Source: Minisyncoccota bacterium
GTDB lineage: Bacteria > Patescibacteriota > Minisyncoccia > Phycocordibacterales > PALSA-1337
Assembly: GCA_041666915.1 (NCBI GenBank)
Contig: JBAYFZ010000003.1
Coordinates: forward strand, 22,394-86,393
DNA: 64,000 bases
Direction of reading: 5' to 3'
Below, one piece after another: positions 31,785 through 62,200 of this stretch; the first letter of the stretch is position 1; every line of letters starts with the position of its first letter. The notes beneath the pieces are model-generated. The model was given only the letters and a program-made list of their open reading frames with translations. It was not told the origin of the DNA and did no database searches. Made by a program: the position numbers and the translations under genes.

Positions 31785-32633
31785 TTAAACAATATCTGCG
31801 AAATATCTTTCAACTTTCTTGAAAACATAAATTCCTACGAATAAAAGTATTACACAAGCAATGAATGAAATACCCAATAACATCCAGTTGATGGGTGCTG
31901 TACCGAGTAAGGCTGCACGAGCATTTTGGATGACTCCCATCATTGGGTTTAGAGCTAAAATTGTTGAATATTTGCCAGCAATACTAGCGGGGTAAATAAC
32001 TGGCGTTACAAACATAAGAATTTGGATGAAAAAGGGAAGGGCGTATCTAACGTCGCGGTATTTGACGTTGATAGCGGCTAGGAATAGTCCGCCACCAACT
32101 GATGCCATGAAAGTGATAATAAGTAGTAGTGGAACAATGAAAAGACCGGCTAGATGAGGAACGTACCCATAGTAGAACATCAGGCCAATCAATATTACTG
32201 AAGCAATAATAAAATCAACCAGCTTTGTCATAACTGAAGAAATGGGGAGGATGAGTCTTGGAAAATAAACTTTGGTGATGATGGCTTGATTGGTTACTAA
32301 AGTAGTACTTGTTTCGGAAAGAGCACCGGAGAAGAATTGCCAAAATAGAAGTCCGACATAAACGAATATAGGGTAGGGTACTCCGTCAGAAGGGATTTTT
32401 GCTAGTCCACCGAAGAAGACTGAAAAGATAACCATTGTTACGAATGGTTGGAAAATAGCCCAAGCAACACCGATAGCAGTTTGTTTGTATCGGACTTTGA
32501 GATCTCTCCAAGTAAAGAAATAAAGTAATTCACGATACTGCCACAGCTCTTTTAGATCAGAGAAATGGAATAATTTTTTTGGTCTTATGACTGTAATTGA
32601 AGAATTCGTTGTCATGGTTTTAGATTTTACCAT
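31785..32633 (-). CDS. wzm: Polysaccharide ABC exporter permease (ABC-2, Wzm type)
   Basis: 282 aa with 6 TM segments and an N-terminal ...LKELWQYRELLYFFTWRDLKVRYKQT motif. It sits immediately upstream of wzt with a start/stop overlap. Confidence 0.75.
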   Translation of the reverse strand: MVKSKTMTTNSSITVIRPKKLFHFSDLKELWQYRELLYFFTWRDLKVRYKQTAIGVAWAIFQPFVTMVIFSVFFGGLAKIPSDGVPYPIFVYVGLLFWQFFSGALSETSTTLVTNQAIITKVYFPRLILPISSVMTKLVDFIIASVILIGLMFYYGYVPHLAGLFIVPLLLIITFMASVGGGLFLAAINVKYRDVRYALPFFIQILMFVTPVIYPASIAGKYSTILALNPMMGVIQNARAALLGTAPINWMLLGISFIACVILLFVGIYVFKKVERYFADIV

Positions 32634-32875
32634 TTGTTTATCTTATTAACGACTTTCTTTTTTAGTGAAAGATAAGACTTCACAGCTTCTTGTTCTATTT
32701 CGGGGGAGAGGACACGTAGGATTTCTTTGCCAAGGATGCGGTACTGTCCACCAACTTTATTGGCACGGAGCAAACCTTTTTTTAGAAGGCGTTTGACCGT
32801 ACTTTCACTGATCCTCAAAATGTCTTGAGTCTCAGAGGTTGTATATACACTGTTTGGTTTGATTTCTTCTGCCAT
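32627..32875 (-). CDS. Small HTH DNA-binding protein (Xis/HTH_17-type, MerR superfamily)
   Basis: 82 aa. ...TSETQDILRISESTVKRLLKKGLLRANKVGGQYRI fits the HTH_17 pattern. It overlaps the wzm start by 7 bp and is the first gene of the minus-strand operon. Confidence 0.55.
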   Translation of the reverse strand: MAEEIKPNSVYTTSETQDILRISESTVKRLLKKGLLRANKVGGQYRILGKEILRVLSPEIEQEAVKSYLSLKKKVVNKINKW

Positions 32876-42046: not shown

Positions 42047-43036
42047 ATGGCTCTCATTGACGAAATACAATTTCATGCAAAAGCAGGCAACGGCGGTAAC
42101 GGCGTTGTTCGTTGGCGTCATGAGAAGAATAAAGAATTTGCTGGCGCAGGAGGTGGTAACGGTGGACCTGGTGGGGATGTCTACGTACGGACTGTTCGCG
42201 ATATAAATATCTTAGCTAGACATAAAACTACAAAATTATTCCAAGCTAGAAATGGTGACGATGGACAAAATTTTAATATGCAAGGTAAGGCTGGAGATGA
42301 TTGTTATATAGATTTACCGATCGGTTCAGTGATTGTAAATCTGCAGACTGGACGTACAATTGAGCTATTCAATGAAGGGGAAGAACAGAAGATTCTACAC
42401 GGTGGTCGTGGCGGTCTTGGTAATGAGTACTTCAAGGCTTCTACAAATATTAGACCTGAGCAATCAACTGACGGTGTCTATGGTGAAGAGGCTGACTTTA
42501 CGGTTGAATTGAACCTCATCGCTGACGCGGGGCTTATTGGTCTTCCTAATGCAGGTAAATCTAGTCTGCTGAACGCACTCACGGAGGCACGCGCGAAGGT
42601 TGGTAGTTATCAATTTACAACTCTGGATCCTAACCTAGGAGCTTTACCAGGAGGTTATATTCTCGCTGATTTGCCAGGACTTATAGAAGGTGCGGCTGAA
42701 GGTAAAGGTCTCGGTCATAAGTTCTTGAAGCATGTAAAGAGAACAAAAATGTTGCTCCATCTTGTTTCTTTGGAGAATGAAAATGTTATAGAAGTTTATC
42801 AAGGTATTAGAAAAGAATTGGAGAGATTTGGTGAGGGTTTGGATCAAAAAGAAGAAATAATAATTCTTACGAAGACGGATCTTGTAGGTCCAGAAAAGAT
42901 AGAAGAAGCGAGAAAGAGTCTTTCCGGAGGTGTAACCTCCGGAAATAAGACGCCGACTATTCTCACTGTTAGTATTTTAGATGATGGATCTATTAAAGAT
43001 TTGTCGGATAAATTGACTAAGAAGTTGGCGGAGTAG
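42047..43036 (+). CDS. obg: GTPase Obg/CgtA
   Basis: N-terminal glycine-rich Obg fold (GGNGGPGGDVYV). G1 GLPNAGKSSLLNAL, G3 DLPGLIEGA, G4 TKTD. Confidence 0.9.
   Translation: MALIDEIQFHAKAGNGGNGVVRWRHEKNKEFAGAGGGNGGPGGDVYVRTVRDINILARHKTTKLFQARNGDDGQNFNMQGKAGDDCYIDLPIGSVIVNLQTGRTIELFNEGEEQKILHGGRGGLGNEYFKASTNIRPEQSTDGVYGEEADFTVELNLIADAGLIGLPNAGKSSLLNALTEARAKVGSYQFTTLDPNLGALPGGYILADLPGLIEGAAEGKGLGHKFLKHVKRTKMLLHLVSLENENVIEVYQGIRKELERFGEGLDQKEEIIILTKTDLVGPEKIEEARKSLSGGVTSGNKTPTILTVSILDDGSIKDLSDKLTKKLAE
42922..42944. repeat. REP copy inside the obg coding sequence (encodes SGGVTSGN)
   Basis: ttccggaggtgtaacctccggaa, a perfect 10-bp-arm palindrome. Confidence 0.8.
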
Positions 43037-43628
43037 GGAAGTTTCTTCCGGAGGTGTAACCTCCGGAAAACAGTATTGGTGTTTGTTTACGAATCTCACC
43101 TAAATAATCTTTGAAGCTAGAGTACTCATAATTTTTAGAATAGGCCATTGCTTCCATGGCATGTTCCTTCTGAGCTTCTTTTGACATTTCTGGTTCCTTG
43201 ATCCCGTAAGGATTTAGATGGACATAATTGATTAGCTTATCAAGATAATCTTTTTCGTACACACCTTTTTCTTTGAACGATCCTTGCCAGATAGTTCCAG
43301 AATGATCGTATTTTTTGTTGTAATAACCAGAATAGCCAGTGCAGAATTTATGCATGAATTTAGTAATGTTTTCTGGAGGTGAAGCCTCCGGAAGTTTTAA
43401 GACGATATGGAAATGATTAGGCATTAAACAATAAGCGACAATATCAACAAGCGTACCTTTACGTTCAATTGAAAATATATCTTTTTCTCCGAAACCTTTG
43501 AGTTCAAAAGATTCGGTATTATTAGCTATATAGAGTAGTTTCAACATACGCCAATAGTCGCTGGCGTCATTAAAAATGACTGCTTTATGAGCTCCTCGGT
43601 TGTAGATATGATAGTAAATTTCTTTCAT
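43017..43628 (-). CDS. REP-associated tyrosine transposase (RAYT; IS200/IS605-like Y1 HuH transposase)
   Basis: HuH motif MPNHFHIVLKLPE. Catalytic Tyr region DYLDKLINYVHLNPYG and a downstream YSSF, as in E. coli RAYT (YIYINPVKHG...WPWSSF). It is flanked on both sides by REP palindromes. Confidence 0.75.
   Translation of the reverse strand: MKEIYYHIYNRGAHKAVIFNDASDYWRMLKLLYIANNTESFELKGFGEKDIFSIERKGTLVDIVAYCLMPNHFHIVLKLPEASPPENITKFMHKFCTGYSGYYNKKYDHSGTIWQGSFKEKGVYEKDYLDKLINYVHLNPYGIKEPEMSKEAQKEHAMEAMAYSKNYEYSSFKDYLGEIRKQTPILFSGGYTSGRNFPTPPTS
43046..43068. repeat. REP copy (terminator-like hairpin between convergent obg and RAYT)
   Basis: ttccggaggtgtaacctccggaa, 9 nt after the obg stop. Confidence 0.8.
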
Positions 43629-43914: not shown

Positions 43915-45498
43915 TTAACCAATCTTTTCTATGAGTAACTTCTTCAGTATTTCAGGGTTGGCTGAACCTTTTGTGGCTTTCATCGCTTGACCTATGAGGA
44001 ATTGGAGTGAAGCAGTTTTACCGTTTTTGTATTCAGCTATTACAGAAGGGTTGGTAGAGATGATGTTTGCGATGACTGGATCAAGTGCACCAAGATCACT
44101 CTTTTGGATAAGGTTATTTTTTTCAGCGAATGCACGCAATTGACCAGCTTCAACATGAGTCGATTTGCTATCAGTTCCACCTACGAGTAATATCAAAAGA
44201 TCTTTTGCTCCACGTGAAGAAAGGTCACCACTTACGATGAGTTCAATGAGTTCAGCGAAGGTGTCTGATCCGATTGGTCCGAGAATGCCCGAAGATTTTG
44301 CATCAGATCCGATTGAACCTTTTTTATCTGCTGAATTATTTTTTTCGGTGTTTGTATTTGAACTGACATTTTCTGTTGAATCGGTCGTGCCAGTTGAATC
44401 ATTTGTACCAGAGACTTTTTTGAGTAGTCCCAAGTAATCAGTGAGGAGATAGTTGACAGCAAGTTTGATCTTCTTTGCATCACCTTTGAATGTGGAAATG
44501 ACTGATTCAAAATATTTTGCAACTTCTGGTTGTTCTATGAATACCGCAACTTCTTTGTCAGTCATGCCAAAAGAATTTTTGAAGCGATCTCGTTTTGTCC
44601 ATGGCAACTCTGGCAAATCTTTTTCTATAACATTTTTAGAAAATTCCGGCATCTCAGAAATTTTCAACTTTGGAATATCTGGTTCAGGGAAGTAGCGATA
44701 GTCATGAGAACTTTCTTTTTTTCGTTGAGAATAAGTTTCTCCGGCGGAGTCATCCCAACCTCGAGTCTCTTGCACGACAACTTCACCAGCTTCAAGGAGA
44801 GAAGTCTGACGTAGAAGTTCACACTCAATAGCTTTTTCTACAGAACGAAATGAATTTAAATTTTTGACTTCAGTCTTCGTTCCAAATTTTCCTTTGGTAG
44901 TGTCAGCGGGGGAGGCGATAGAAATATTTGCTTCAACACGCATTTCTCCTTTTTCCATATTTGCTTCACCAGCTCCAAGGTAACGTAAAAGTAGTTGCAA
45001 CTCTTTTGCGAAACGTACAGCAGTGACGGCATCATGGATGACAGGTTTTGTAACGAGCTCCATGAGCGGTACTCCAGATCTATTAAAATTTACTAAACTT
45101 TTTTCGTGTGAGTCGTGAGTGGACTGGGCAGTGTCTTCTTCAAGATGGATTCTCTCTAGTTCAATGCCAGCAAGATTTCCTCCAGAGACGAGAGGGTATT
45201 TGTATTGAGAGATCTGGTAACCTTTTGGTATATCAGGATAAAAATAATTTTTGCGATCCCATTCTGTAAAATCGGCAATAGTTCCACCTATGGCTGTACC
45301 TACGCGGATAACATGTTTGATTGCTTCTTTGTTGAGGACTGGAAGAGTACCTGGGTGAGCTAGACAGATAGGGCAGACATTTTGGTTAGGTTTTTCTTCA
45401 TCTGGATTGTTCCTACAAGAACAGAACATCTTTGAATTAGTACGAAGCTCGGCGTGTATTTCCAAGCCAATAGTTGGTATATATTTATTGTTTTCCAT
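43915..45498 (-). CDS. gatB: Asp-tRNA(Asn)/Glu-tRNA(Gln) amidotransferase subunit B
   Basis: MENNKYIPTIGLEIHAELRTNSKMFCSC..., VCPICLAHPGTLPVLNKEA, and a C-terminal GatB/YqeY domain. A low-complexity S/T/N/D-rich insert of about 50 aa sits before the tail domain. Confidence 0.9.
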   Translation of the reverse strand: MENNKYIPTIGLEIHAELRTNSKMFCSCRNNPDEEKPNQNVCPICLAHPGTLPVLNKEAIKHVIRVGTAIGGTIADFTEWDRKNYFYPDIPKGYQISQYKYPLVSGGNLAGIELERIHLEEDTAQSTHDSHEKSLVNFNRSGVPLMELVTKPVIHDAVTAVRFAKELQLLLRYLGAGEANMEKGEMRVEANISIASPADTTKGKFGTKTEVKNLNSFRSVEKAIECELLRQTSLLEAGEVVVQETRGWDDSAGETYSQRKKESSHDYRYFPEPDIPKLKISEMPEFSKNVIEKDLPELPWTKRDRFKNSFGMTDKEVAVFIEQPEVAKYFESVISTFKGDAKKIKLAVNYLLTDYLGLLKKVSGTNDSTGTTDSTENVSSNTNTEKNNSADKKGSIGSDAKSSGILGPIGSDTFAELIELIVSGDLSSRGAKDLLILLVGGTDSKSTHVEAGQLRAFAEKNNLIQKSDLGALDPVIANIISTNPSVIAEYKNGKTASLQFLIGQAMKATKGSANPEILKKLLIEKIG

Positions 45499-45768: not shown

Positions 45769-46224
45769 AAAATTAAAGGTTAATAAACATTGATAATAGT
45801 TATTAAATATATATAAATTGAATAAAATGTAATCTAAAATTATGCAAATTCTGTCTAAATCGTATTAATGTTTATAAAGGGTAAAATAAGATAGAAAATT
45901 TTAATAAAAATTCATGATCAACTTTTAGCTTTACGTTTATAAGTTTAACATATTTATTAAGGTGCAACTCTTAAAAATGTGCATAAAGCCCTATAAACGA
46001 TTTTAAAGCCAAGTTTTGAATTGAAATTATTGTCTACTTGTAAAACCATCATATTTATTTATATCACACCTTATAATATTAGCCGTATATTTATTGTGTG
46101 AGTACTATTTATATACTAAGTTTATCCCTTCCTGATTAAAACAGGTCTCTACACGATCTAGTCGCCCGACTCTTTTAAGTATTGATATATCTTTCCCTAT
46201 AAATGAAATTACAGCCTCTGAGAT

Positions 46225-46247
46225 TTACGGAGGTTACACCTCCGGAA
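46225..46247. repeat. REP copy in inverted orientation, within the AT-rich 45769-46350 control region
   Basis: ttacggaggttacacctccggaa (loop tta/cac, the reverse of gtgtaac). Confidence 0.7.
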
Positions 46248-46350
46248 AAATTACTACATACCTTTTTTTATTTCTGTTTTATAATTTGTTGTCCACAGTT
46301 TTCCTGAATATTTTCGTTAAAGATTACGATATAATGATTAGCGAACCAAT

Positions 46351-47526
46351 ATGAAAGATAGCTTTATTATTGAAGGTAAAAAATACATCTCGTCTAGACG
46401 AGCTTCCGAAATCTCGGACTATGCTTCTGATTACATCGGACAACTTTGTCGAGCAGGAAAGTTGGATTGCAAAATGGTCGGACGTGCATGGTTCATTACC
46501 GAAGAGTCTCTCAGTCTACACAAAACAAATGTTCTCCAAGATGAAGTTGTCAGAAACAGGATTGAAAATCTCCGTGGAAAGAAAAATAGGAACTTGGTTG
46601 TAAGCTCAGAAGCAATTAAGACTTCCGCTTCTACACAGACTCAGACTTCAACCAATGTTGTAACAGTTACAAACTCCTCAATAGTTGTTAGTTCAAATCC
46701 TGTAATATCAAATCAACAAGCTCCTGTTGTTTCGGGGTCTACTCCTGCACAATCCAAAGTTTCTGGTTCATCATTTGTTTACACTTCTGATGAAAGGCCA
46801 TTGTTACCAGTATTGAAGAAGCCTGTTACACCAGTTGCGAATGTTTCTAAGAATAAAAAAATACTTTCATTCTTATCAAAGAATGAAAGTAAATCAGCTG
46901 TTACAAAAAATAGATCAGCTAGTGAGATCGCTGGAAAAGTTACAAAGTCTCTCAAGAAGTTAACTACAGTAGGAAAACCTATCATCTCATATCCAGAACT
47001 TACTCGTTCAATAATTTTGAGACGTGCACTTGCTTCAGCTCTAGTAATCATGTTCTTTATCGGTATGGGTACGATGACTTTCAATATTTTCAATAGTGAA
47101 GAAGTCTCGGTCGCAACCAATGCTTCTAGTTCTCCTAGTGTTGCATCGGGATCGGCCAGAGCAAATGTTTACGATGTGATAATGGTTGCTACTTCTTTTG
47201 TTAAAAATGGATTTGGCAATATTGCATCTTTGTTTACAAAAACATCAAAACTCACTCTCAACGATACATCTCCGCCAGATGGTTTTGGTGGTAGTCAAGG
47301 ACTATCACCAAATGGTTTAGCAGTCACATCATCAAGTGGTTCGGATAGTGTAGATGAAGCGGTTAAACAAAAGATTAAGGGTTCGTTTTCAGATGAAGTT
47401 GAAGTTAGTCCAGATGAGAGTGGTACAGCAGGTGTGATCACTCCAGTGTTTAGAGAGTCAAAAGGAAAAGATTTTATTTATGTAATGGTTCCGGTAGATG
47501 GTAAGGGGGCAAGCGTGACACCGTAA
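46351..47526 (+). CDS. Membrane-tethered protein: N-terminal Xis/HTH_17-like DNA-binding domain, S/T-rich linker, single TM, extracytoplasmic C-terminal domain
   Basis: N-terminus: KKYISSRRASEISDYASDYIGQLCRAGKLDCKMVGRAWFITEESL, which is an HTH_17 pattern. TM: ILRRALASALVIMFFIGMGTMTF at about aa 215-237. No known domain after the TM. Confidence 0.45.
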   Translation: MKDSFIIEGKKYISSRRASEISDYASDYIGQLCRAGKLDCKMVGRAWFITEESLSLHKTNVLQDEVVRNRIENLRGKKNRNLVVSSEAIKTSASTQTQTSTNVVTVTNSSIVVSSNPVISNQQAPVVSGSTPAQSKVSGSSFVYTSDERPLLPVLKKPVTPVANVSKNKKILSFLSKNESKSAVTKNRSASEIAGKVTKSLKKLTTVGKPIISYPELTRSIILRRALASALVIMFFIGMGTMTFNIFNSEEVSVATNASSSPSVASGSARANVYDVIMVATSFVKNGFGNIASLFTKTSKLTLNDTSPPDGFGGSQGLSPNGLAVTSSSGSDSVDEAVKQKIKGSFSDEVEVSPDESGTAGVITPVFRESKGKDFIYVMVPVDGKGASVTP

Positions 47527-47579: not shown

Positions 47580-48257
47580 ATGAAAAAAAATATTATCAGT
47601 GCAATATTGGAAATAGGAATAGGATTCTTTGCAATCTTCTGGATATTCCTATTTTTAGAACCAGCGATATTACAGGGTGCCCAGAACACCTTCACTATCG
47701 CGCAAACAGTCTCCAAAGAGATTTCCTTCACGACACCAGGGTCCAATGTAACCCTTTCTCCTTCTTTGGGAGGTTTGACTGGGGGTACAGCAACAGGCGA
47801 AACGCAGATAGTGGTGACTACTAACAGTAGTCTTGGGTACATGATGACTATCATGGCTAGTTCATCGGTAGGTATGATCGGTAATGCTAGTTCATCCAAT
47901 TCTATTCCAGCTTATGTAACAGCTACAGCAGGTGTTCCAGATTTTAGTTTTACTGTTCCAGCCAATAAGGCATATTTTGGTTATTCAGTTGAAGCGTCTA
48001 CGACTGCTGACCTAGCAACTTCTTTCAAAGACGCTGCTAGTGCTTGTGATTCTGCTGGTGGAAGTGATACTGCTGACAAATGTTGGATAGCAGCAACTTC
48101 AACAGCGTATACGGTAGTCAATAGAACTTGGCAGACGCCAGCTTCTGGAGCAACAACTACTTTGAAATTTAGAGTTACTATCAATGCCAATCCAAGTCCA
48201 GTTATCCCAGATGATACTTATGTTGCTACAACGACACTTACAGCGACTGCAAATTAA
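47580..48257 (+). CDS. Secreted/anchored beta-rich protein of unknown function (paralog of 49363-50178; WxL-like candidate)
   Basis: N-terminal hydrophobic signal/anchor MKKNIISAILEIGIGFFAIFWIFLF. Shares blocks with the downstream paralog (VTLSPSLGGLTGGTATGETQIVVTTNSS... / ...TTTLKFRVTINAN...TYVATTTLTATAN). Confidence 0.45.
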   Translation: MKKNIISAILEIGIGFFAIFWIFLFLEPAILQGAQNTFTIAQTVSKEISFTTPGSNVTLSPSLGGLTGGTATGETQIVVTTNSSLGYMMTIMASSSVGMIGNASSSNSIPAYVTATAGVPDFSFTVPANKAYFGYSVEASTTADLATSFKDAASACDSAGGSDTADKCWIAATSTAYTVVNRTWQTPASGATTTLKFRVTINANPSPVIPDDTYVATTTLTATAN

Positions 48258-48261
48258 AAAT

Positions 48262-49311
48262 ATGAAAAAAATCACGATTATAAACAAATTGAATACTGTC
48301 AATCTGAATAAGGTGCTAGCGATCCTTGCAATATTTGTAGTCGTAGTCGGTGTCTCCAATATGGTGTTGGCAAAAGTAGAAACATCCACCACGACAAGTC
48401 CTGTTACAGAAAAAGCAGTAGTCTCTTTTGAAACTTTGCCAGAAAATACAGTATTCAATGATTTTGTTGTTGGTCCAGGAAAAGTCCAGATAGATATTGC
48501 TCCTGGAGAATCAAAAACTTTTGAACTTACTATTGCGAACAGATTAGGTACAGAGAAAACTTTTTCAATCGTAGAAGAAGATTTCGTCGGCTCAAATGAT
48601 CCAGACAAAACTGTTGTCTTGTTGGGTAATGACCGTGGCCCATATTCGCTCAAGGATTATTTGAAGATAGGTACAAGTTCAATAGACATTCCTCATGCTG
48701 TAAAGTCTCGCGTCTTGATAACTGTATCTGTTCCTAAGAATGCTCAGCCAGGTGGTCTATATGGAAGTGTTGTCATCGGTACCGTGAGTAAGGCTGGTGA
48801 CAATTCTAGTTCAACCGGAGTCAATACAACTAATCCAATAATCACTCGTATAGGTACTTTGGTTTTTGTGAGAGTTGCTGGTGCAGTCAAAGAAAGTGGT
48901 GAGCTTACAGGTTTTATATTAGCTGGCAATCACAAGTTTATTTCTGGAGGAGAGCCTGTAGTCTTTGATCTTTTGTACAAGAATTCAGGAAATATTCACC
49001 TCAATCCAAGTGGAACAATAACTATAAACAATCTGCTTGGTTCAAATGTTGGAAATATAAAAGTTGAACCATGGTTTGCTATGCCAAATTCACTTCGCTT
49101 TCGTGAGGTTGAATGGAAAGCACCTTTTCTCTTTGGAAGATACACAGCTCATGCGGTCATAGAGAGAGGTTACGGTGACCTCAAAGATGAGATGAGTGTC
49201 ACATTCTGGATCGTGCCGTGGAAGATGATGTTGATGGTGATAGCGGGTCTGGTGGTTTTTATAGGATTAGTGAGATGGATATTCAAGAAGTTCAAGATAA
49301 CGAGAAAGTAG
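48262..49311 (+). CDS. Cell-surface protein with N-terminal signal peptide, two beta-sandwich-like regions and a C-terminal TM anchor plus basic tail (DUF916/DUF3324-like architecture)
   Basis: Signal AILAIFVVVVGVSNMVLA. APGESKTFELTIANR looks like a CARDB/DUF916-like strand. C-terminal WKMMLMVIAGLVVFIGLVRWIFKKFKITRK. The track ORF at 48184 overlaps the upstream gene; the ATG at 48262 follows its stop. Confidence 0.4.
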   Translation: MKKITIINKLNTVNLNKVLAILAIFVVVVGVSNMVLAKVETSTTTSPVTEKAVVSFETLPENTVFNDFVVGPGKVQIDIAPGESKTFELTIANRLGTEKTFSIVEEDFVGSNDPDKTVVLLGNDRGPYSLKDYLKIGTSSIDIPHAVKSRVLITVSVPKNAQPGGLYGSVVIGTVSKAGDNSSSTGVNTTNPIITRIGTLVFVRVAGAVKESGELTGFILAGNHKFISGGEPVVFDLLYKNSGNIHLNPSGTITINNLLGSNVGNIKVEPWFAMPNSLRFREVEWKAPFLFGRYTAHAVIERGYGDLKDEMSVTFWIVPWKMMLMVIAGLVVFIGLVRWIFKKFKITRK

Positions 49312-49362: not shown

Positions 49363-50178
49363 ATGAACAAAAATTTCATTAAAAACTTAAGGAAAAATTC
49401 TTGTGATGTCGGATATCACAGCAAGTTTACCGTCTTAATCGTTACTGCCTTTTTTGTAGTTTCAATCTTTGGTCTATTGAATGTTGTCAACGCAGAGGTT
49501 ATGTCTAGCACAAATTACAAACTTGAAAATGACAGTATCAATTTTGGTGGAGGACGTGCCACTTCTACTTCTTATGTCATTGAAGATACTGCCGGAGAAA
49601 TTGCAACAGGTATGTCGTCTAGTACCAATTACATTATGAAAGCTGGTTATCAACAGACTCAAGATATCTACACAGTTTCAGTCACGCAATCTTCAAATGT
49701 AACAATGTCTCCTTCATTCGGAGGTGTTACCGGAGGTACAGCCAATGGACAGACATCCTTTACTGTAACTACCGACAATCCTGCTGGTTATTCAGCGACG
49801 ATCGCAGCAACTATGTCTCCAGCACTTAGGACATCGGCAGATAGTTTTACGGATTATGTTCCAGCTGGTGCGGTCCCTGATTTTACTTTTACGAACGCTT
49901 CAACAAATTCTTCTTTTGCCTTTACTCCAGAGAGTACTGATTTGGATGTTGATTATGAAGATTCTGGTGGAGTTTGTGGGGTTGCAGGAAGTGATACTGC
50001 AGATGCTTGTTGGAATGGTTTATCAACGACAGGAAAGACGATACTAAATAGAACTTCATCAAACAATCCATCTGGTACAGCGTCAACGATAAAGTTTAGA
50101 GCGGAATCAGGGAGTAATCATATACAAGTAGACGGAGTTTATATGGCAACGACAACGATTACGGTAGTGGCATTGTGA
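49363..50178 (+). CDS. Secreted beta-rich protein, paralog of 47580-48257
   Basis: Signal peptide TVLIVTAFFVVSIFGLLNVVNA. VTMSPSFGGVTGGTANGQTSFTVTTDNPAGYSATIAATMS. C-terminal ...TIKFRAESGSNHIQVDGVYMATTTITVVAL. Confidence 0.45.
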   Translation: MNKNFIKNLRKNSCDVGYHSKFTVLIVTAFFVVSIFGLLNVVNAEVMSSTNYKLENDSINFGGGRATSTSYVIEDTAGEIATGMSSSTNYIMKAGYQQTQDIYTVSVTQSSNVTMSPSFGGVTGGTANGQTSFTVTTDNPAGYSATIAATMSPALRTSADSFTDYVPAGAVPDFTFTNASTNSSFAFTPESTDLDVDYEDSGGVCGVAGSDTADACWNGLSTTGKTILNRTSSNNPSGTASTIKFRAESGSNHIQVDGVYMATTTITVVAL

Positions 50179-50234: not shown

Positions 50235-53200
50235 ATGAATAAAAATTTTATTAAAAACTTAGGAAAAAATATCATCAAGGTTGCACCTCGATGTTTTGTT
50301 ATCTTTACTTTAATTATTTCTTTCATTGTTTCTCCTTTGTCAGTTTTTGCCGTTCAGTCTACATTTACAACTTCTCTAACTACTACTGGAGTTGCTACAA
50401 CACCACCGGCAATACCTTCCAATCTTTTGGCTACCGCAGTCTCTGATACACAGATTGATCTTTCTTGGACAGCTTCGGTTCCGACATTCTACACAGTTAC
50501 TGGTTATAGGATTTTCCGTGATTCTGTATTTTTGGCCACAACTAGTTCAGTGGTTTATTCCGATACAGGTTTGACTCCAGAGACAGCTTATTCATATACA
50601 GTAGAAGCTTTTGATTCAATTATTCAATTGTCTGGACAGTCTGCCACTTCTACAGCTACAACTACAGCAACACCAGTTGTTCCTCCTGTAACTCCTCCAG
50701 TAACACCACCTTCTTCTGGTGGAGGAAGTTCGGGATCTTCAGTGATCAATATCACTGATATTAAGGTCGTCGCTGGAACAAATAATGCAAATATTTCATT
50801 TAAGACCAATGTATCAGCTCAGACGAAAGTCCAGTGGGGATTCTCAAATGATTTTGAAATCGGTTCCCTTCAAAATATTTTTTATGGAAAAGAACATTCT
50901 CAAATGATAAATGGTCTTGTTGAAGGTTTAACATATTTTGTCAGGATTACAGCTACCAATAGTCAAGGTATATCTACATATAGAGATATTTCTTTCAAGA
51001 CTGATCTTGCTGTAGTAGAACTTGGTCCTTTGCCAAACCCATCAAATTTCTTGGCACAAGCTACAGACAAAAATATCAATCTTACTTGGGACAATCCTAT
51101 AGATGAGAGATTCAATAATGTCAGAATAGTTCGTACAGAAGGATTTTTCCCAATAGATCAATTTGACGGTACTCCTATATATGAGGGTGATGGTCAATCT
51201 TTTGTAGATAAGAGTGCAAAAATCGGTACTACGTATTACTATGCTATTTTTGCAAAGGGTATAGATGGAGAATATTCTTCAGGTGCTTTGGCTCAAGCTC
51301 GCATCGCTCCAGCTGGAGAGATAGTAGTCTCGCCAACTTCAACAGATCCATTTATAAATATTCCAGAGTCAACAAATGTGGATCCGATGATCAAAAAGAT
51401 TACTTTGTCTGATTTTGAATTTATTCAAGAAGGGAAAAATCTTTCAGTTATCGGTAGTACGGTTGCTATAAAAGGTGGCGAAAATCTAACTATTCGTCTT
51501 GCATACAACAAAGTTCCTGAAATTTTGAAGACAGTTGCTTTCACCTTGCAAGATCCATCAGATAAAACAAAAGTCTTCCCATTTTTGTTACGTATCAATG
51601 CTGACAAGACTTACTATGAAGCGACTATTGGTGCTTTGGGTAAATCTGGTCGTTATGGAATGTCAGTAGTTATTTTGGATTATGAAAATAAAGGTTTGAA
51701 ACGTTTGAATGGAACTCTTGCTGCGCTTGCTTTCAATGCAATGCCTTTTGATTTCGGTAATAATTTTGATTTCTTGGGCATATTGTTGTTGCTCTTGGTA
51801 ATCATCCTTGTTATTTTGGCTATCGCATTGCTTCGTAAGTGGATCAATTATTCTCCAGAACATCAGACTGTAGACAAACCAAAAACTTCTGGAGTTACTA
51901 TTTCCAGAGATGTTTTCAATGCTATTTCAAAGATTTCAATATTTGTCTTGGTTGTTACGGCTTCATTCGGAATTCAACAAGCATTTGCTACTACTTTCAA
52001 TCCAGAGATAAATTATCAAGGTAAATTGACCGATAGTGTTGGTTCAAATGTTGCCAATGGTTCATATAGTATTCGTTTCAAACTTTATACGACCTTGTCT
52101 GGAGGTTCACCTATTTGGACTGAGACATGGTGTAACACTTCAACTTGTGATGGTTTGGGTACAGGTGCGGATAGTAGAATAACTTTGACTAGTGGATTAT
52201 TTAGCACCATGCTTGGAAGTACGACTGCTTTAGATGGCATTGATTTCAATCAGCCTCTATATCTCGGTGTTGAGATCGGAGGTTCTGGAGCAACGGCTTC
52301 ATGGGATGGGGAAATGTCACCTCGTAAGATTCTCGGAGCTGTCCCTTCCGCATTTTATTCCGCAACTTCTACGGTGGCTCTTTCTGCAAATTCTGCTGAC
52401 ACCTTATCTGGATTGAATTCTTCACAATTCCTTCGCTCTGATATACAAAATGCTACTTCATCATCTTCAACTTTCTTCAGTGTCTTACAATCTGGTGCTG
52501 GTAAGATTGCAGAATTTTTTGGGAGCGCAGCACAAAGTGTCTTTTCAATTTTATCAAATGGTAATGTCGGAGTCGGAACAACTACTCCATCATCTAGGTT
52601 TAATGTTTATGGTGACGTATCTTTCCAAACTCCATCAAATTCAGCCACAGCTTTTCAGATACTAAACTCGGCCACCAGTTCGGTTTTCTCTGTAGCTACT
52701 ACAGGCTTTGGTACTACTACTTTAGCTGGTCTAACTATTTCTGGTTCAGCTACTTCTACCTCTAACGTAGGTTGGAATATCTCCACGGGATGTTTTGCAG
52801 TCAACGGTGTCTGTTTGAGTGGTGCAGATGGTACGGCCAGTTCCACTCTATTATCTGATACCAACACATGGACAGGTTTGAATGTCTTTGGTTATGCAAG
52901 TACCACTCAGATCAGTTCAACAGGAAATGCTTATCTTGCTACGACTGGTGGGAATGTTGGTATCGGCACCACTTCGCCATTCGCAAAATTTGCAATCAAT
53001 CCAATTGCTGGTGATGGGGCGTCATTCGTCATTGGTTCTTCTACTAGAACAGATTTTATAGTTACAAATGAAGGAATGATTGGGGTTGGAAGCACGAGCC
53101 CTTCTGCAATTTTCAGTATCTTAGGACGAAACGGCAAGACACAAGGTACGGCGGAAACTAGGATTGCACCAACAGCTCTCTATGTTCAAGGAGGAACCGG

Positions 53201-56200
53201 TGGTGGAGGATCTTCGATCCCTGGGGGTAAAGGAGCGGATATTATCCTTATCGCTGGTAATGGAGCAAGTTCTGCTTTAGGAGATGGTAACGGAGGTAGT
53301 TTAACATTTACGGCCGGTAATGGTGGTGCTACTGATGGGAGTGGTGTTGGTGGAAATGTAACAATAAATCCAGGTCTAACTGGAGGTGGAGGTAATGGTA
53401 AAATTGTCTTAGCTGATTTGCGAGGTAATGTTGGAGTTGGTACCACTTCACCATTCAGTAAACTTTCAGTTTCTACTCCTGCTCAACAAAGCGGATCATT
53501 ACCACTCTTTACAGTTGCTTCTACAACGAGTGCCTCGCTACTTACGGTTCTTGGGAATGGCAATGTGGGGATTGGTACGGCGGTGCCTACAAGTGTTTTA
53601 GATGTTAATGGAAATATAAATGCTACAACCATGATAGCCGGTACTCATCTACTTGTTCAGAATACAGGAATATATTATGACTCGGTTTCCAATGGAGCGT
53701 ATTCTTTTGCAAATTCTGGTGTTGATCTTGCTCTCAAAACAGCCTCTGTCGGCACAGTTATGACGATTAAAGATGCCGGCCTCGTAGGCATCGGCACCTC
53801 TACCCCATATTCCAAACTCTCCGTCTGGGGTTCTTCAACAGGAACAAACAGAATGTTTGAATTAACCAACAGTGCTTCAACAACACTAATGAGTATGTTG
53901 GAAAATGGTACAGGTTATTTCTTGGGTAATATCGGAATTGGCACCACCACTCCAGGTACTATTCTTTCTCTTGGAAATACCGGTGATAGCACCATCAATC
54001 TTTCAGTTACAGCCACTTCAACCTTTGGTACAGGAATAAATCTACGAACAGGTTGCTTCGCTGTAAACGGAACTTGTGTCGGTGGTGCAGATGGTACTTC
54101 AAGTTCTACTCTATTATCAGACACTAACACTTGGACAGGTTTGAATGTCTTTGGGTACGCAAGTACCACGCAGATATCTTCAACAGGTTCCGCCTATTTC
54201 GCAACAACTGGTGGGAATGTTGGAGTTGGTACAACTTCACCTTTCAGTAAACTTTCAGTTTCTACTTCTGCACAACAGAGTGGAACATTACCACTCTTTA
54301 CAGTTGCTTCTACAACGAGTGCTTCATTATTTACAGTTTTGGGAAATGGGAATGTGGGGATTGGGACTTCTACTGTTTCAGAAAAACTTTTTGTGGAAGG
54401 CAACATTGCTCCTTCAATGACTAACCTATATACCGCTGGTAGCTACACTCTAAATTCCGCTGTTGCTTCCGTAGCTAATATTACAGCTTCAGGAATCGCT
54501 AATTCAGATCTACTTGGTGTTAGTTCCGCTTCTGCTGGAGATGTGAATGGTGATGGTATTAACGATGTTATTATCGGTGCAACTGCTGCTGATGGTGCAG
54601 GTACCGATCGTGGTCAAGCTTACATCTTCTTTGGTTCAACCACTCCTAGGACAACATTTGCTCCTGCTTCTGCCGACGTTATCCTTTCTGGTTCAGAAGA
54701 TTCTGGTAGTTTTGGTACTAGTGTCGCCTCTGCTGGAGATGTAAACGGTGATGGATATGGCGATGTGATAGTCGGAGCTACTAATGTTGCTGGCGGAGGT
54801 TCATATCGTGGTCAAACATATATCTTTTATGGAGGCCCAAATTTCACAGGTGCAATAATTGCTTCTTCTGCAAATGTAATTATTTCCGGAGCGGCTGATT
54901 ATGATAGTAATGGTCAAGTTGTAGCTTCTGCAGGAGATGTAAACGGTGATGGATATGGCGATGTGATCATGACTGCATTGTCTGCTGATGATGGAGGTTT
55001 TGATCGTGGTCAAGCCTATATCTTTTATGGTAAGCCAAACCTTGCAAGTACATATACTACAGCAAATGCTGATGTTATTATTTCAGGAAATACCGATGGT
55101 GTTCAGATGGGTAATAGCGTAGCTTCTGTTGGAGATGTGAACGGTGATGGATATGGCGATGTGATCATTGGTGCACAATCTGCAGATGTTGGAGGTAATA
55201 ATCGCGGTCAAGCCTATATCTTTTATGGTAAGCCAAACCTTGCAAGTGCTTATTCAGCTTCTTCTGCGAATGTTATTGTCACTGGAATGGTAGATATGGG
55301 CTTTATGGGTATCAGTTCTGCTTCTGCTGGAGATGTGAACGGTGATGGATATTCTGACTTTATCATTGGGGCAAGTAGTGCAGCTGGTGGAGGTACTTCT
55401 CGCGGTCAAGCCTATGTCTTCTACGGTAAATCAAATTTAGCAAGTACATATTCTGCATCTTCCGCTAATGTAACTATTTCCGGAATCGCCAATAGTGATG
55501 CTCTTGGTTACAGTGTTGCCTCCGCTGGAGATGTGAATGGTGACGGATATGGAGATATTATAGTTGGAGCAGTTGGTGCCGCTGGTGGAGGTACATCTCG
55601 CGGTCAAGCATATATTTTCTACGGTAAGTCTGATCTTTCAAGTACTTATACAGCTTCATCTGCAGACGTTGCTTTTTCAGGAATTGCCACTAGTGATGCT
55701 TTTGGTTCCAGTGTTACTTCTGCTGGAGATATAAATAATGATGGGTACTCTGATGTTATGGTTGGAGCATATGGTGCCGCTGGCGGAGGTACATCTCGCG
55801 GTCAAACATATATCTTTACCCCAACCGGCAATCGTTTCAAATCTATTTATGCACAAAGTGGTAGCTTTACAAAGGGAATACAACTAGGTGGTGGAATGTC
55901 AACGTTGAATGCTTACGGTCTTTCAAGCCTAAGTCAATTTTCATTAAACACGGCAGATTGGTCAATCAGTAAATCAGGAACTTCTTCCATGCAGAGTTTG
56001 ATAGTTTCTGGAAATGTTGGTATCGGTACAACTTCGCCATTCTCAACTCTTTCTGTTTCTACTCCTGTACAGCAGAGTGGATTGTTATCGCTCTTCACGG
56101 TTGCTTCTACTACGGGCGCTTCTCTATTTTCTGTCTTAGGCAATGGAAATATCGGCATCGGCACGACCACTCCGGGCACACTTTTATCTCTTGGAAACAC

Positions 56201-59200
56201 CGGCAACAGTACCATTAATATTTCGGCTACTGCCACTTCAACCTTTGGTACGGGAATAGATTTAAGAACAGGTTGTTTCGCCATTAACGGCGTCTGTTTG
56301 AGCGGTGCAGACGGTACAGCAAGTTCTACACTTTTGTCTGATACTAATACTTGGACAGGTTTGAATGTCTTTGGTTACGCAAGTACCACGCAGATCAGTT
56401 CAACAGGAAATGCTTACTTTGCAACGACTGGAGGAAAGGTAGGAGTTGGAACAACTTCGCCATTCTCAACCCTTTCTGTTTCTACTCCTGCACAACAGAG
56501 CGGGTCATTACCACTTCTTACAGTAGCTTCTACGACTGGTGCGACGCTATTAACTGTTTTGGGAAATGGGAATGTGGGGATTGGAACAATGAATCCAGCG
56601 TATCCATTAGATGTTAATGGAAGTGTGAACGCAGCCTCTTATAGAACAAGTAATGTGATTTCTCTTATATTAGCAAATTCTGCTATAAATATAGGAGATA
56701 CTTATGGAAGTACTTATCCTCTTGTAGTTAATGCTGGTGGTTCAGAAAGGATGAGAGTCTCGACTGGTGGCAACGTCGGCATCGGCACCACCTCTCCATA
56801 TTCCAAACTCTCCGTCTGGGGTGCTTCAACAGGAACAAACAGAATGTTTGAATTAACCAACAGTGCTTCAACAACACTCATGAGTATGTTGGAAAATGGC
56901 ACAGGCTATTTCTTGGGTAATATTGGAATTGGAACAACTTCACCATACGCGAAACTTTCAGTGGTTGGTCCGGTAGTGGCTGAATATTTCTATGCAACCT
57001 CCACAACAGCAACTTCAACATTTGCTGGTGGGCTTGATGTAGGAAATGGTGGACTTGTTTATGAGGCTTCTACAGGTATCACTTCAGCTTCTTCATTCCA
57101 AATGGGTAACTTAAGTTTTGATCTCAATGCAGGTGCTGTATCTTGGATAGATCTTCCAATAGATAGTAGTGCCCCAGCAAATACACCACAGAGTTACACT
57201 GCCAACTTGAACGGTTTGCCAATGCTCACTATCGGAGGTCTTTCTGATGGTGCTGGGAATATTATAAATGCTGGTATCGGAATCGGTACAACTACCTCAT
57301 ATTCCAAACTCTCCGTCTGGGGTTCTTCAACAGGAACAAACAGAATGTTTGAATTAACCAACAGTGCTTCAACAACACTCATGAGTATGTTGGAAAATGG
57401 CACAGGATATTTCTTGGGTAATATTGGAATTGGAACAACCACCCCAGGTACACTCCTTTCTCTTGGAAATACCGGCAACAGTACCATTAATATTTCAGCT
57501 ACTGCCACTTCAACATTTGGTACAGGAATAAATCTAAGAACAGGTTGCTTCGCCGTCAACGGAATTTGTGTCGGTGGTGCAGATGGTACAGCAAGTTCTA
57601 CTCTACTATCAGACACCAACACATGGACAGGTTTGAATGTCTTTGGGTATGCCTCTTCAACACAATTCACAACAACGGCTGATACATATCTTGCGACATT
57701 GGGAGGCAATGTTGGCATTGGTACGACAAGTCCTGTCAGTAAGTTTTCAGTTGATGGGACTTCTAGCTTTAGTGGCTACACTATCATTGGTGGAACATCA
57801 CTTATAGATAATTCAGTTCCTCTTAATGTCATAGCTGATGGTTATTTTGGTACAGCAGGTAAGATAGCAAACTTTATTTCCAATCAAGATTATGGACATG
57901 TGGGTATATTCAAAGATGATAATTCTCGCGGATTGTTCCTCGGTTACGGTACTGGTAATTTGCTAGCAGGTAATGATAATGATGCTTTTATACAGATTGG
58001 AGCCGCATCAAGTAGTCGTGGTTACCTCCATTTGGTTGATGGTGTAGGTGCTGGTTCTGATGGTCAATTCGGTCTAATGAGTCCTTATGTTCTCATTGGA
58101 GCTTCTACTGCAAATGGAAGTGGCTCAGTCTTACAAGTTGAAGGCTTGTCTACTCTTGTTGGTAATGTTGGTGTTGGAACGACTTCACCTTTGGCAAGAT
58201 TGGATGTTGCCGGAGTCTTGGGTTCTCAAGCAGATTTATTCAATGTTTCTTCAACGACAGCAACAGATATAGTCTCAAGTCTATTTAAAGTTTCTGCAAA
58301 TGGTAATGTTACTATCGGTTATTTGAATGGTTCTCTCCAAGCTGTCAACGGAGTAGTTTCTGCAACTTCAACACTTTCAATTGCTTATGGAGGTACAGGT
58401 ACATCTACATCTCCAACATATGGAAAATTACTTATGGGTGATGGTACTGGAAAATATGACTTAGTTGCAACTTCAACATTGGGAATTTTGGGTGCTAGTG
58501 CTATTGCATTGGGTACACCTGGTCAGATACCTTATTACTCTGCAAATTTGCAAGCAGTTTCTGCAACTTCTTCTATATTTATAAATCAGACAAATAGTTT
58601 TATTGGTATCGGTACAACTACTCCTACCTCAGCTTTGTCAGTCTTCAACGCTTCCGCTCCTCAATTCCAGCTCGCATATAACACGAGTAATTACATGAAT
58701 GTCGGGGTTTCTTCTACTGGTGGAGTTACAATGGCAGTCAATGGTTCTCTCGGAGGCTTTGCTATCACAAATCCTCAACCGACCGTTGTTGGTAGTGGTA
58801 CAGGTACAAATGCTCCTCTAGGTTTCTCTGTAGCCGGTGGTATCGGAGGAAATTCAAATGATACAAATATTGGTGTTGGTGGTATCGGTGGCGGTTTGCA
58901 ACTTACAGCTGGTGTTGGAGGTTCCGCAGGACTTTCTACTTTCTCAGAGACAGGTGGTGCTGGAGGTGCAGTATCTATGCTTGCTGGTGCTGGAGGTGCA
59001 ACGGCTTCTCCTAGTATTGATTTTATGTCTAGAGTTGCAGGTAACGGAGGTCTCATGACTTTGGCTGGTGGTGCTGGAGGTAATGCTTCAAATGGTGGTC
59101 TAGCAAGTTCTAATACTGCTGGTAATGGTGGAGCTTTCACTTTGAAAGGTGGTGCTGGAGGTAATGCTAGTGGTGCTACAACCAATAATGGTGGTGCTGG

Positions 59201-62200
59201 AGGGAGTCTATATATATCAGGTGGTGCTGGAGGTACAGGTTCTACTGCAAATGGTACTGCTGGTAATCTTTATCTCGGTTATGATTCTTCAAGCGCTCTT
59301 GGTAATGTTTATTTCGGCAATCAGGGTGCCTCGTACATTACAAGTACAGGGAATTTTGGAGTTGGTACCACTTCTCCTTTCAGTAAACTTTCAGTTTCTA
59401 CTTCTGCTCAACAGGATGGATCAACGCCACTCTTTACAGTAGCTTCTACTACAAGTGCTTCGTTATTTACAGTTTTGGGAAATGGGAATGTTGGGATTGG
59501 GACAAATAATCCAACAAAGCTTTTTATTGTCGCGTCTGGAGCAAACACAGTTATGAGTATGAATTCTTCGGGTCTATTGAATATAGCAACTTATCTTCAA
59601 CTTAATGGTGGAACCGCTGTTTCTTATAGTGGTACACAGTTACAGTTGGGTACTGGTTTTACTACGCAATATTTACCAGGCAACGTCGGCATCGGCACCA
59701 CCACTCCATTAGCCAAACTTAACATCTACGGCGACGTGGTTTTCCAGACTCCAACCAATTCAGCCACGGCTTTCCAGATACTGAACGCGGCTACCAGCTC
59801 GGTCTTCTCTGTAGCTACCACCGGCTTTGGCACTACTACTTTGGCTGGTCTAAATATCTCCGGTTCAGCTACTTCTACTTCTAACGTAGGTTGGAATATT
59901 ACATCCGGTTGTTTTGCCATTAACGGCGTCTGCGTAGGAGGTGGTGCAGGCGCAGGTGATGGTACAGCAAGTTCTACTCTTTTGTCTGATAATAATACTT
60001 GGACAGGTTCTAATATATTCAATAGTAATGTTGGAATTGGTACCACCTCACCATTCTCAACTCTTTCTGTTTCTACTTCTGCACAACAAAATGGAGCATC
60101 ACCACTCTTTACAGTAGCTTCTACGACTGGTGCGACGTTATTAACTGTTTTGGGAAATGGGTATGTTGGAATTGGTAAATCTAATCCAACGGTTGCTTTG
60201 GATGTGACAGGGGGAATATCTGCTAGTGGAAATATTGCTGCTGGTGGAGCCTTATATGCGGGTGGTGTTTACGGCTTGATATGGAATGGTCGTAGTAGTA
60301 TTTATTCAACTGCTGATGGTCAATTTTCTTTCTATAATAACGCTGGAACATCTTTTTCAAGAATTAATCTTGGAGGAACCACTTCAGCTTTTCCTGCAAT
60401 TGGGGCTTCTGGATCTAATCTTATAGTCCAGTCTGCTGATGGAACACTTGGCACTAATTTAGGAGTAGGCACCTCCTCCCCATACTCCAAACTCTCCGTC
60501 TGGGGTTCTTCAACAGGAACAAACAGAATGTTTGAGCTAACCAACAGTGCCTCAACAACACTTATGAGTATGTTGGAAAATGGTACAGGCTATTTCTTGG
60601 GTAATGTTGGAATTGGTACAACTTCTCCTTATGCAAAACTTTCAGTAGTTGGTCCAGTAGTGGCTGAATACTTCCATGCAACTTCTACAACAGCAACCTC
60701 AACATTTGCTGGTGGTTTTGATGTAGGTAGTGGTGGACTTACTTACGAACAGGGTTCAGGTATTACTTATATCAGTTCTCTACAGACTTCTAATTTCAAT
60801 TTTGAAACAAATGCAGGTATGGTCTCATGGGTAGATCTTCCTACAGATTCCAATGCTCCAAGCGGTACAGTCCAGAGTTATTCAGCAGGTCTAAACGGAA
60901 GTTCAACACTTACTATATATGGTATATCAGATGGTGCTGGTAATCTTCAATCTGATTGGCCGAGAGTATCTATCGGAGGTACATCTGCAGGTACGACTAC
61001 ACCTAGTTCAAAATTGACAGTTTTTGGTAATGGTACTGGAACAGGAGGAATATTTGAGCTTGTAGATAGTGCCTCAACAACACTTATGAAAGTTTTGAAT
61101 AATGGAAGTGTCGGTATCGGCACAACCTCTCCAGGTACTCTTCTTTCTCTCGGAAACACTGGAAACAATACAATCAACATCTCAGCTACTGCCACTTCAA
61201 CCTTTGGCACAGGAATAAACCTAAGAACAGGATGTTTTGCTGTTAATGATGTTTGTATAGGTGGCGGTGGTGGTGCAGGCGACGGCACATCAAGTTCTAC
61301 TCTACTATCTGATTACAACACATGGACAGGTTTGAATGTCTTCGGATATGCAAGTACCACACAGATCAGTTCAACTGGAAATGCTTACTTTGCTACAACA
61401 GGTGGAAAGGTAGGAGTTGGAACAACTTCACCATTCTCAACTCTTTCAGTTTCTACTTCTGCACAACAAGATGGAGCATTACCACTCTTTACAGTGGCTT
61501 CTACTACTGGAGCTTCGTTACTTACAGTTTTGGGAAATGGGTATGTTGGTATCGGAACAGCAAGCCCAACAAATGTTCTTGATGTCAGTGGAACATTCAA
61601 ATCTAGTGGCCAATCAATAGTCGCTGACGCCTTCCGTTTCTATACAGGCAACAGTGATGCTGGTACCTCATACAGTGATTTTAGAACAAATCCTGCAACC
61701 GGTAATGCAATACTTAGCGCAAAGTCTGGAGCTGTCTATTTCAACTACGATCACGGCAATCAAGGAGTCATCTTTTCAAACGGATCTCAAGCTACGGTAG
61801 CTACTATAAATAGTACTGGACACGCAGTGTTCTATGGTACGGGTGATAACTCATTTGCAGGAGAATTGGGCGTTGGTACAACCACTCCATATTCCAGACT
61901 TTCAGTTTGGGGGGCTTCAACAGGAACAAATAGGATGTTTGAATTAACAAACAGTGCTTCAACAACACTCATGAGTGTATTGGAAAATGGTACAGGTTAT
62001 TTCTCAGGAAATATTGGAATAGGAACAACCACCCCAGGTTCTATCCTTTCTTTGGGTGATACTGGCAGTAACACCATCAACATCTCAGCCACAGCCACTT
62101 CAACATTTGGCACAGGTATAAACCTAAGAACAGGATGTTTTGCTGTTAATGATGTTTGTATAGGTGGCGGTGGTGGTGCAGGCGACGGCACATCAAGTTC

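Follow-up and report, generated by a model that had tools for sequence, protein, structure and literature searches.

A bitopic winged-helix protein at the head of a giant-fibre and Pam-like pilus locus in Patescibacteria, and its possible role as a membrane-bound regulator

In the 64,000-nucleotide (nt) stretch of Minisyncoccota bacterium DNA analysed here (the window; GenBank assembly GCA_041666915.1, contig JBAYFZ010000003.1, positions 22,394 to 86,393 of the forward strand), the gene at 46351..47526 encodes a protein of 391 amino acids (aa) in which a DNA-binding-type domain (the N-module), a long linker, a single transmembrane (TM) helix and a conserved external module (the C-module) follow one another. 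We tentatively read it as a bitopic protein that joins a DNA-binding domain to a giant fibre or Pam-like pilus encoded downstream and that acts as a membrane-bound one-component regulator; as judged from sequence, the regulatory role is plausible. The candidate phyla radiation (CPR), or Patescibacteria, are thought to live attached to host cells and, to our knowledge, almost nothing is known about how their attachment organelles are regulated or anchored.

The open reading frame (ORF), which had been called from the DNA alone in an earlier note, is a real gene: the public databases contain an identical protein from Candidatus Paceibacterota under the name 'hypothetical protein', and a database search with the target protein gave 214 homologs at E<=0.01, most of them with full-length coverage. 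Using a profile of the N-module against 1.84 billion cluster representatives, we obtained 4047 matches at E<=1e-10 and 6975 at E<=1e-3. Relatives of the target protein are encoded in 466 species-representative genomes, and the titles of all of these genome records are those of CPR/Patescibacteria (Taylor-, Nomura- and Wolfebacteria, Paceibacterota and generically labelled metagenome-assembled genomes (MAGs)). The source databases label the homologs as hypothetical or 'HTH domain-containing' (HTH, helix-turn-helix), no Pfam or NCBIfam family covers the target protein or its C-module, and a description of the family was not found in the literature including the preprint on the Pam pilus (bioRxiv 10.64898/2026.03.03.709456). 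In total, the family is large and unannotated and is apparently CPR-specific. Alignments reveal two strongly conserved modules, the N-module and the C-module, with variable sequence between them; mean column identity is 73% in the N-module versus 25-29% over the whole protein.

To model the target protein, we used AlphaFold2 (AF2) with the 77-sequence alignment. Residues 1-65 adopt a β-β-α-α-β-β-α order as assigned by DSSP, with a predicted local distance difference test score (pLDDT) of 89-97, and contain two helices followed by a β-hairpin wing, which is the HTH_17 fold of Xis and BldC. The top Foldseek matches of the N-module in the PDB are mycobacteriophage Pukovnik Xis, BldC, RacA and the RdfS excisionase, and Pukovnik Xis is the best of these with a target-normalised TM-score (TMt) of 0.7 and a root-mean-square deviation (rmsd) of 1.7. 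The fold matches, which include 4j2n, 6ama and 8dgl, mostly have target-normalised TM-scores of 0.5-0.73, and the rmsd to Xis, BldC and RdfS is 1.6-2.2 Å. The Foldseek E-values are weak (>=0.07), which is to be expected when a domain of 50 residues sits in a query of 391 residues. That the top fold matches are all DNA-binding domains favours a DNA-binding N-module. Moreover, Pfam HTH_17 (PF12728) is matched by 22 of the 77 family members with a best E of 9.2e-15, so that the Xis/HTH_17 assignment proposed earlier for the N terminus stands with regard to fold and relatives. The domain is not a MerR protein in miniature: neither MerR nor MerR_1 is matched by the target or the 77 relatives and, in the AF2 model, the wing and one further helix are followed by the disordered linker and not by a MerR coiled-coil or effector domain. 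When the family profile was searched against PDB sequences, the sole match was an artefact of low complexity.

The consensus sequence of the N-module is MKDSxIxEGKKYISxRRASxISxYxSDYIGQLCRAGKLDCxMVGRSWFVTEESLxxHK, and I13, S14, R17, Y24, D27, Y28, G30, Q31, L32, R34, G44 and W47 are invariant in both a 25- and the 77-sequence alignment. Members of one subfamily carry two N-modules in tandem, an arrangement to be expected if the DNA-binding unit works as a multimer.

The linker has a pLDDT below 50, rising to ~72 around a conserved motif at residues 144-157. This motif, Y..D.RPLLP.L.K, is kept in 54-59 of 77 relatives, is also seen in several fused giant proteins described below, and suggests a cytoplasmic binding partner. 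All of the relatives (77/77) have a hydrophobic segment, 60 of them exactly one, and in 68/77 lysine and arginine are richer on its N-terminal than on its C-terminal side; this bias places the HTH in the cytoplasm and the last ~150 residues outside. With more than 210 residues ahead of it, the helix is not a signal peptide. In the AF2 model, a second helix (residues 273-295) follows the TM helix. Altogether, these data bear out the topology outlined in the earlier note, i.e. a long linker rich in S, T and V (K is also abundant), a single TM helix and about 150 extracytoplasmic residues beyond it.

The C-module comprises 65 residues at the end of the external tail and has the family consensus NGIxVxPSxGSxxxDEAxKQKIxxSFSDEVxVxPDxSGTAGVITPVFKxxxGKDFVYVLVPVK; a shorter signature given for residues 322-387 is SFSDEVxVxPDxSGTAGVITPVFxxxxGKDFIYVMVPV. 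The full-length AF2 model contains a C-terminal α/β module at residues 322-381 with moderate confidence. The C-module gave no Pfam or NCBIfam match, and a profile search with it retrieved only short, mostly fragmentary Patescibacteria proteins of the same family and no other architecture.

Twelve loci contain a long ORF whose N terminus consists of the N-module, the PLLP motif, the TM helix and the juxtamembrane helix. These fused ORFs are 573 to >1523 aa; most extend past the analysed DNA, while L076 is closed at 1245 aa. They are without the C-module, and 10 of the 12 fused ectodomains share segments with the giant proteins of loci in which the two genes are split, e.g. with 66% identity over 176 aa or 50% over 135 aa. 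A protein-database search seeded with the fused head retrieved no giant proteins and, therefore, the evidence for fusion comes from the 12 genome loci. In eight split loci, the giant gene starts within -3 to +10 nt of the target stop codon, a spacing consistent with translational coupling. Taken together, the fusions and the close gene spacing make the target protein look like the detached membrane and cytoplasm head of a giant surface protein, and the C-module would be the likely docking piece.

In the AT-rich spacers upstream of the target genes (117-1003 nt, median 414, 27% GC), we looked for conserved elements by k-mer enrichment over 66 non-redundant spacers. The box TT[AG]TCCACA occurs in 65 copies in 33.6 kb of spacer versus four in 553 kb of flanks, and in 45 loci it is found in coding-strand orientation no more than 80 nt from the start codon, mostly at -59 to -63. 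With at most one mismatch and at most 130 nt upstream, it is found at 81/81 non-redundant family genes (65 split, 12 fused or long and four truncated) versus 8/465 control ORFs, of which one has a strict match. It is also present upstream of fused genes that have no neighbour encoding a MerR-like protein. Across loci, 39-43 nt separate the start of the box from a TATAAT element downstream, which ends 14-16 nt before the ATG; the box is followed by a T-tract. The target promoter has no -35 consensus and no Shine-Dalgarno sequence, whereas the giant gene has a Shine-Dalgarno sequence. With neither of these two elements and a short distance from TATAAT to ATG, the target mRNA should have a short leader, and a box centred near -48 at a promoter without a -35 is in a position of the activator type.

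The regulatory reading can be laid out as follows. The extracellular C-module would dock non-covalently to the fibre or pilus encoded downstream and so restore the fused architecture, while the HTH, on a flexible tether of ~150 residues, would reach the nucleoid and bind DNA; with a long tether and very small cells, contact with the nucleoid should be feasible. The best candidate site for the HTH would be the conserved box at the target's own promoter, and the state or abundance of the surface apparatus would feed back on transcription of the operon via the HTH. The regular occurrence of the same 9-mer upstream of a gene for a DNA-binding-type protein is a classical signature of autoregulation.

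Several observations weigh against this reading. The window protein itself has no HTH match in Pfam, HTH_17 included, even at E<=1. The docking role of the C-module is pure inference, its fold being modelled poorly (pLDDT 57) when the module is taken alone and Foldseek yielding nothing meaningful for it in the PDB. A structural anchor would explain the fusion of the head to giant adhesins equally well. In membrane scaffolds such as RodZ, an HTH domain can have a protein and not DNA as its ligand. Moreover, genes for members with tandem HTH modules have no second box to match, which slightly disfavours a model with one module per box. Finally, the 9-mer is letter for letter a high-affinity DnaA box, TTGTCCACA in the window and TTATCCACA or TTGTCCACA in relatives; such boxes are TTATCCACA in Escherichia coli and Bacillus subtilis and TTGTCCACA in Mycobacterium tuberculosis and Streptomyces coelicolor (PMC4285127 Table 1). 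DnaA is therefore an obvious alternative binder.

A serious alternative, somewhat less probable than the regulatory reading, is that the target protein is a structural membrane anchor or assembly factor of the giant fibre or Pam-like pilus with a PamR-like role and not a regulator. The C-module would then hold the fibre, possibly by β-strand complementation, and its low-confidence fold is compatible with a domain completed by a strand from a partner. The HTH and the Y..D.RPLLP.L.K motif would bind a cytoplasmic protein for localisation or coupling to secretion, as the RodZ HTH does with MreB, or the HTH would bind DNA without a regulatory role; transcription of the operon would be left to DnaA via the box and/or to the MerR-like neighbour. 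The fused HTH-TM-giant proteins of the 12 loci, the close spacing of target and giant genes, the identity of the box with the DnaA box and the protein partner suggested by the conserved linker motif all agree with such an anchor, and a membrane anchor at which the pilus ends is already part of the Pam model. However, the closest structural relatives of the N-module are all DNA-binding proteins, the conservation of the N-module goes far beyond the needs of an anchor, and the box accompanies every N-module gene, even outside the canonical locus, in the manner of an autoregulated gene.

Other roles for the N-module are less probable still. RacA is among the best fold matches, the sole conserved candidate site is a DnaA box, and 17 loci have a second, distal box; with these in mind, the protein could be a chromosome-to-envelope tether, similar to RacA or FtsK-gamma, that binds DnaA-box-like sites including those at oriC and either brings the origin or nucleoid to the site of the attachment organelle or else acts as a competitor of DnaA, in this way linking host attachment to replication. 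We consider this improbable, since each locus has only one or two boxes and the fixed distance from box to -10 indicates a promoter function. The locus is also unlikely to be oriC itself, given the one or two boxes, a GC skew that is positive on both sides without a change of sign and no dnaA nearby. We think it very improbable that the head sequesters the MerR-like regulator at the membrane, in the manner of RsgI or an anti-sigma factor, and frees it when the external module senses the state of the fibre: the MerR-like gene is a near-constant divergent neighbour and its product is of the same fold class as the N-module, but fused and some split genes without an adjacent MerR-like gene still carry the box, and no anti-regulator is known to have the HTH fold. 

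Returning to regulation by the membrane-bound HTH, an extended form of it, to which we give little credence, would couple the outside directly to DNA, with a giant ectodomain that contacts the host, fused or docked via the C-module, linked to a winged helix specific for DnaA-box DNA. When the fibre attaches or comes under mechanical load, the action of the HTH at DnaA boxes would be altered, both at the promoter of its own gene and possibly at oriC, with the HTH either staying tethered or being freed by Notch-like proteolysis, and host contact would be linked both to expression of the attachment apparatus and to initiation of replication in an obligate epibiont.

The order of genes is the same in the eight loci of distant homologs that we looked up: AI-2E transporter, Obg, GatB, divergent MerR-like gene, AT-rich spacer, target, small genes and giant gene. 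The MerR-like gene is directly upstream of the target in ~65/72 genome loci and in 8/8 of the look-up loci, and this synteny confirms that the target gene heads the surface locus, as previously proposed. Between target and giant gene, the look-up loci have zero to four small genes without Pfam matches. The giant genes of these loci encode 2224 to >6236 aa with Peptidase_S74, LVIVD or fn3 signatures; Peptidase_S74 is the intramolecular chaperone domain of tail spikes. The giant protein in the window has at least six FG-GAP repeats. Among the genes that precede it (Table 1), the product of 48259..49311 is a candidate membrane-anchored pilus chaperone, and the PamT match of the 271-aa pilin is well below the NCBIfam cut-off (44 versus 240 bits). 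Genes sized like the 225-, 350- and 271-aa set recur in loci L004, L005, L007 and L008.

Table 1. Coordinates, in window positions, of the target gene, its parts, its promoter and the neighbouring elements
Feature	Coordinates	Strand	Evidence
Gene for bitopic HTH-TM protein, 391 aa	46351..47526	+	ORF; first gene of operon
N-module, aa 1-65, cytoplasmic winged helix of Xis/BldC/MerR class	46351..46545	+	AF2, Foldseek, HTH_17 in relatives
Cytoplasmic linker, largely disordered, aa 66-213, S/V/K/T-rich	46546..46989	+	AF2 pLDDT, composition
Linear motif YTSDERPLLPVLKK, aa 144-157	46780-46821	+	Family alignment
Single TM helix, aa 214-247, hydrophobic core ~aa 224-246, N-in/C-out	46990..47091	+	AF2, hydropathy, charge
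C-module, aa 322-387, conserved extracellular α/β module	47314..47511	+	Near-invariant or invariant alignment columns
Box TTGTCCACA, 62 nt upstream of ATG, ~-53 to -45 of inferred start site near 46342	46289..46297	+	Family-wide conservation
TATAAT -10 element, 15 nt before ATG	46330..46335	+	Sequence; constant spacing across loci
Candidate double-stranded DNA target for the N-module, bearing the box: TTGTCCACAG			
Inverted sites ACATTGATA (45787) and TATTAATGT (45863)	45787..45871	.	Inverted repeat by start of MerR-like gene
Small MerR-type HTH protein, 83 aa	45517..45768	-	Pfam MerR E 1.9e-8, MerR_1, HTH_17
Gene for HTH_17/excisionase-type protein	32627..32875	-	ORF, family match
Secreted 225-aa protein, pilin-like by position and composition	47580..48257	+	ORF; no Pfam/NCBIfam match
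350-aa protein with signal peptide and C-terminal TM helix	48259..49311	+	Weak WxLIP_PGBD match, E 1.7e-3
271-aa PamT-like pilin	49363..50178	+	NCBIfam NF058579 CPR_pilus_PamT, E 1.5e-11
Giant secreted protein, >4588 aa (continues past window end)	50235..64000	+	Signal peptide; fn3; Pfam FG-GAP E 1.4e-45

The 582-nt spacer between the MerR-like gene and the target (45769-46350) contains further elements. ACMTTDAT sites are 18-fold enriched in the spacers and confined to ~100 nt by the start of the MerR-like gene; in the window (45769-45900) and in loci L001, L002, L026, L027, L036, L037, L051, L054, L055, L057, L058, L060, L071 and L077, inverted ACMTTDAT/ATHAAKGT sites bracket the likely -10 of that gene (TGTTATAATGT on the minus strand), and these sites are probably the operator of the MerR-like protein itself. 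As this protein has its own distinct sites, the box is not obviously its operator. The distal TTATCCACA box of the 17 loci mostly lies by the MerR-like promoter among ACMTTDAT/ATHAAKGT sites. We also noted a GC-rich hairpin, TTTACGGAGGT-TAC-ACCTCCGGAAA, at 46224-46248, ~40 nt upstream of the box; in other loci, a similar element, ATCTCGG-N3-4-CCGAGAT, precedes the box, and the interval from box to -10 often contains a CCGAGAT half-site. An RNA gene in the spacer was rejected, as Rfam gave nothing at the gathering threshold or at E<=1 and no tRNA was found. Similarly, a small protein-coding gene was rejected, since the only ORFs are shorter than 35 aa and the spacers of relatives align at the motifs only.

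The window encodes two small HTH proteins that had been proposed to be paralogous to the target (Table 1). BLASTP gave no alignment of the target to either of them, the hidden Markov model (HMM) of the family N-module matched neither, and hhalign of the N-module against the divergent MerR-like protein reached a probability of 22%. The paralogy was thus rejected; from their sequences, the three proteins appear to share a fold class without being close paralogs. The gene at 32627..32875 does head a pair of genes for an ABC-2 permease and an ABC ATPase, as suggested for this exporter operon, but it lies on the minus strand, its plus-strand reading being interrupted by stop codons. Three GTCAAA direct repeats (at 32896, 32906 and 32916 with an exact spacing of 10 nt; span 32894-32921) lie 20-45 nt upstream of this gene and only there. 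The triple repeat is absent from the target spacer, and the window-wide count of GTCAAA equals the shuffled expectation, and a GTCAAA operator common to both loci is therefore rejected; it is plausible that the repeats are a head-to-tail operator for the Xis/BldC-like protein encoded at 32627..32875.

Four side observations were made in the window and in related genomes. A 33-nt inverted repeat with 97% complementarity (arms 32918-32950 and 33079-33111) lies between two divergent operons and adjoins the GTCAAA repeats. GatB (43915-45498, minus strand) has 527 aa and is ~40-50 aa longer than the GatB of related loci (478-494 aa), and the extra length probably stems from a low-complexity stretch rich in S, T, N and D (GTNDSTGTTDSTENVSSNTNTEKNNSADKKGSIGSDAKSSG). 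Just upstream of gatB, an IS200-like Y1 transposase is encoded at 43017-43628 on the minus strand (Pfam Y1_Tnp E 5.6e-8). Finally, many MAGs with a Paceibacteria-type locus (among L010-L088) are titled 'uncultured Candidatus Saccharibacteria bacterium' (third-party annotation (TPA) assemblies), which looks like a generic label and not a real assignment to Saccharimonadia.

In the target family, a DNA-binding-type domain is linked, physically or genetically, to giant surface fibres and to the locus of a Pam-like pilus. Should the box be the site of action of the HTH, these proteins would represent a new class of one-component regulators bound to the membrane and would be candidate sensors of host contact; should DnaA act on the box, the giant adhesin operon would be under cell-cycle control.

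Among known systems, ToxR, TcpP and CadC share with the target a cytoplasmic N-terminal winged-helix domain, a flexible linker, one TM helix and an external domain, and the target gene likewise heads a locus that its product might control. The ToxR/CadC-like label given earlier is accordingly apt for the N-in/C-out topology, the tether, the single TM helix and the external tail. It is not apt for the DNA-binding domain: ToxR, TcpP and CadC have an OmpR/PhoB-type domain (Trans_reg_C), whereas that of the target is of the Xis/BldC/MerR type (HTH_17 class), and Trans_reg_C (PF00486) gave no match in the target at E<=1 and none in the 77 relatives at E<=0.01. In the absence of an OmpR-type winged helix, the relation to ToxR/CadC is one of analogy and not of membership. 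Moreover, the linker of the target is much longer, its external module is unrelated and new, and the protein is genetically coupled, and sometimes fused, to a giant surface protein. The best structural matches to residues 1-60 (TMt ~0.7, rmsd 1.6-2.2), i.e. BldC, phage Xis and RdfS, are small soluble proteins that polymerise head to tail on direct repeats, while the target is tethered to the membrane and has its own invariant signature, Y-x-x-D-Y-I-G-Q-L-C-R. RodZ, in which the HTH is a protein-binding module in an envelope scaffold, resembles the target in its cytoplasmic HTH, linker, single TM helix and external domain, but its HTH is of the XRE type and its external domain is DUF4115; neither was detected in the target, and the corresponding Pfam families (HTH_25 and DUF4115) were also not detected in the 77 relatives.

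The Pam operon of Candidatus Mycosynbacter amalyticus, which specifies a donor-strand pilus, encodes pilins, PapD-like chaperones with C-terminal TM helices, the membrane anchor PamR and a co-localised tail-fibre-like protein, and Pam pilins occur mainly in Saccharimonadia and Microgenomatia (bioRxiv 10.64898/2026.03.03.709456). The locus in the window is similar in having a PamT-like pilin, a chaperone-like protein with a C-terminal TM helix, whose architecture is like that described for PamC and PamD, and a tail-fibre-like or giant protein; it differs in its Paceibacteria-type host and in the PamT match below the cut-off. The target protein has no NCBIfam match and is not recognised as a homologue of PamA, PamB, PamC, PamD, PamE, PamR or PamT. 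The preprint (bioRxiv 10.64898/2026.03.03.709456) reports neither an HTH nor a TM-HTH component, and its text contains no HTH, helix-turn-helix or MerR term. Compared with DnaA-regulated promoters, the 9-mer of the target box is identical, but it is single, at a fixed promoter-proximal position and specific to genes of the target family and does not form an oriC-like cluster. In total, this family stands out from known membrane-bound one-component proteins by a different DNA-binding domain, a new external module, an unusual and conserved link to giant proteins of the cell surface and a promoter element that is a DnaA box.

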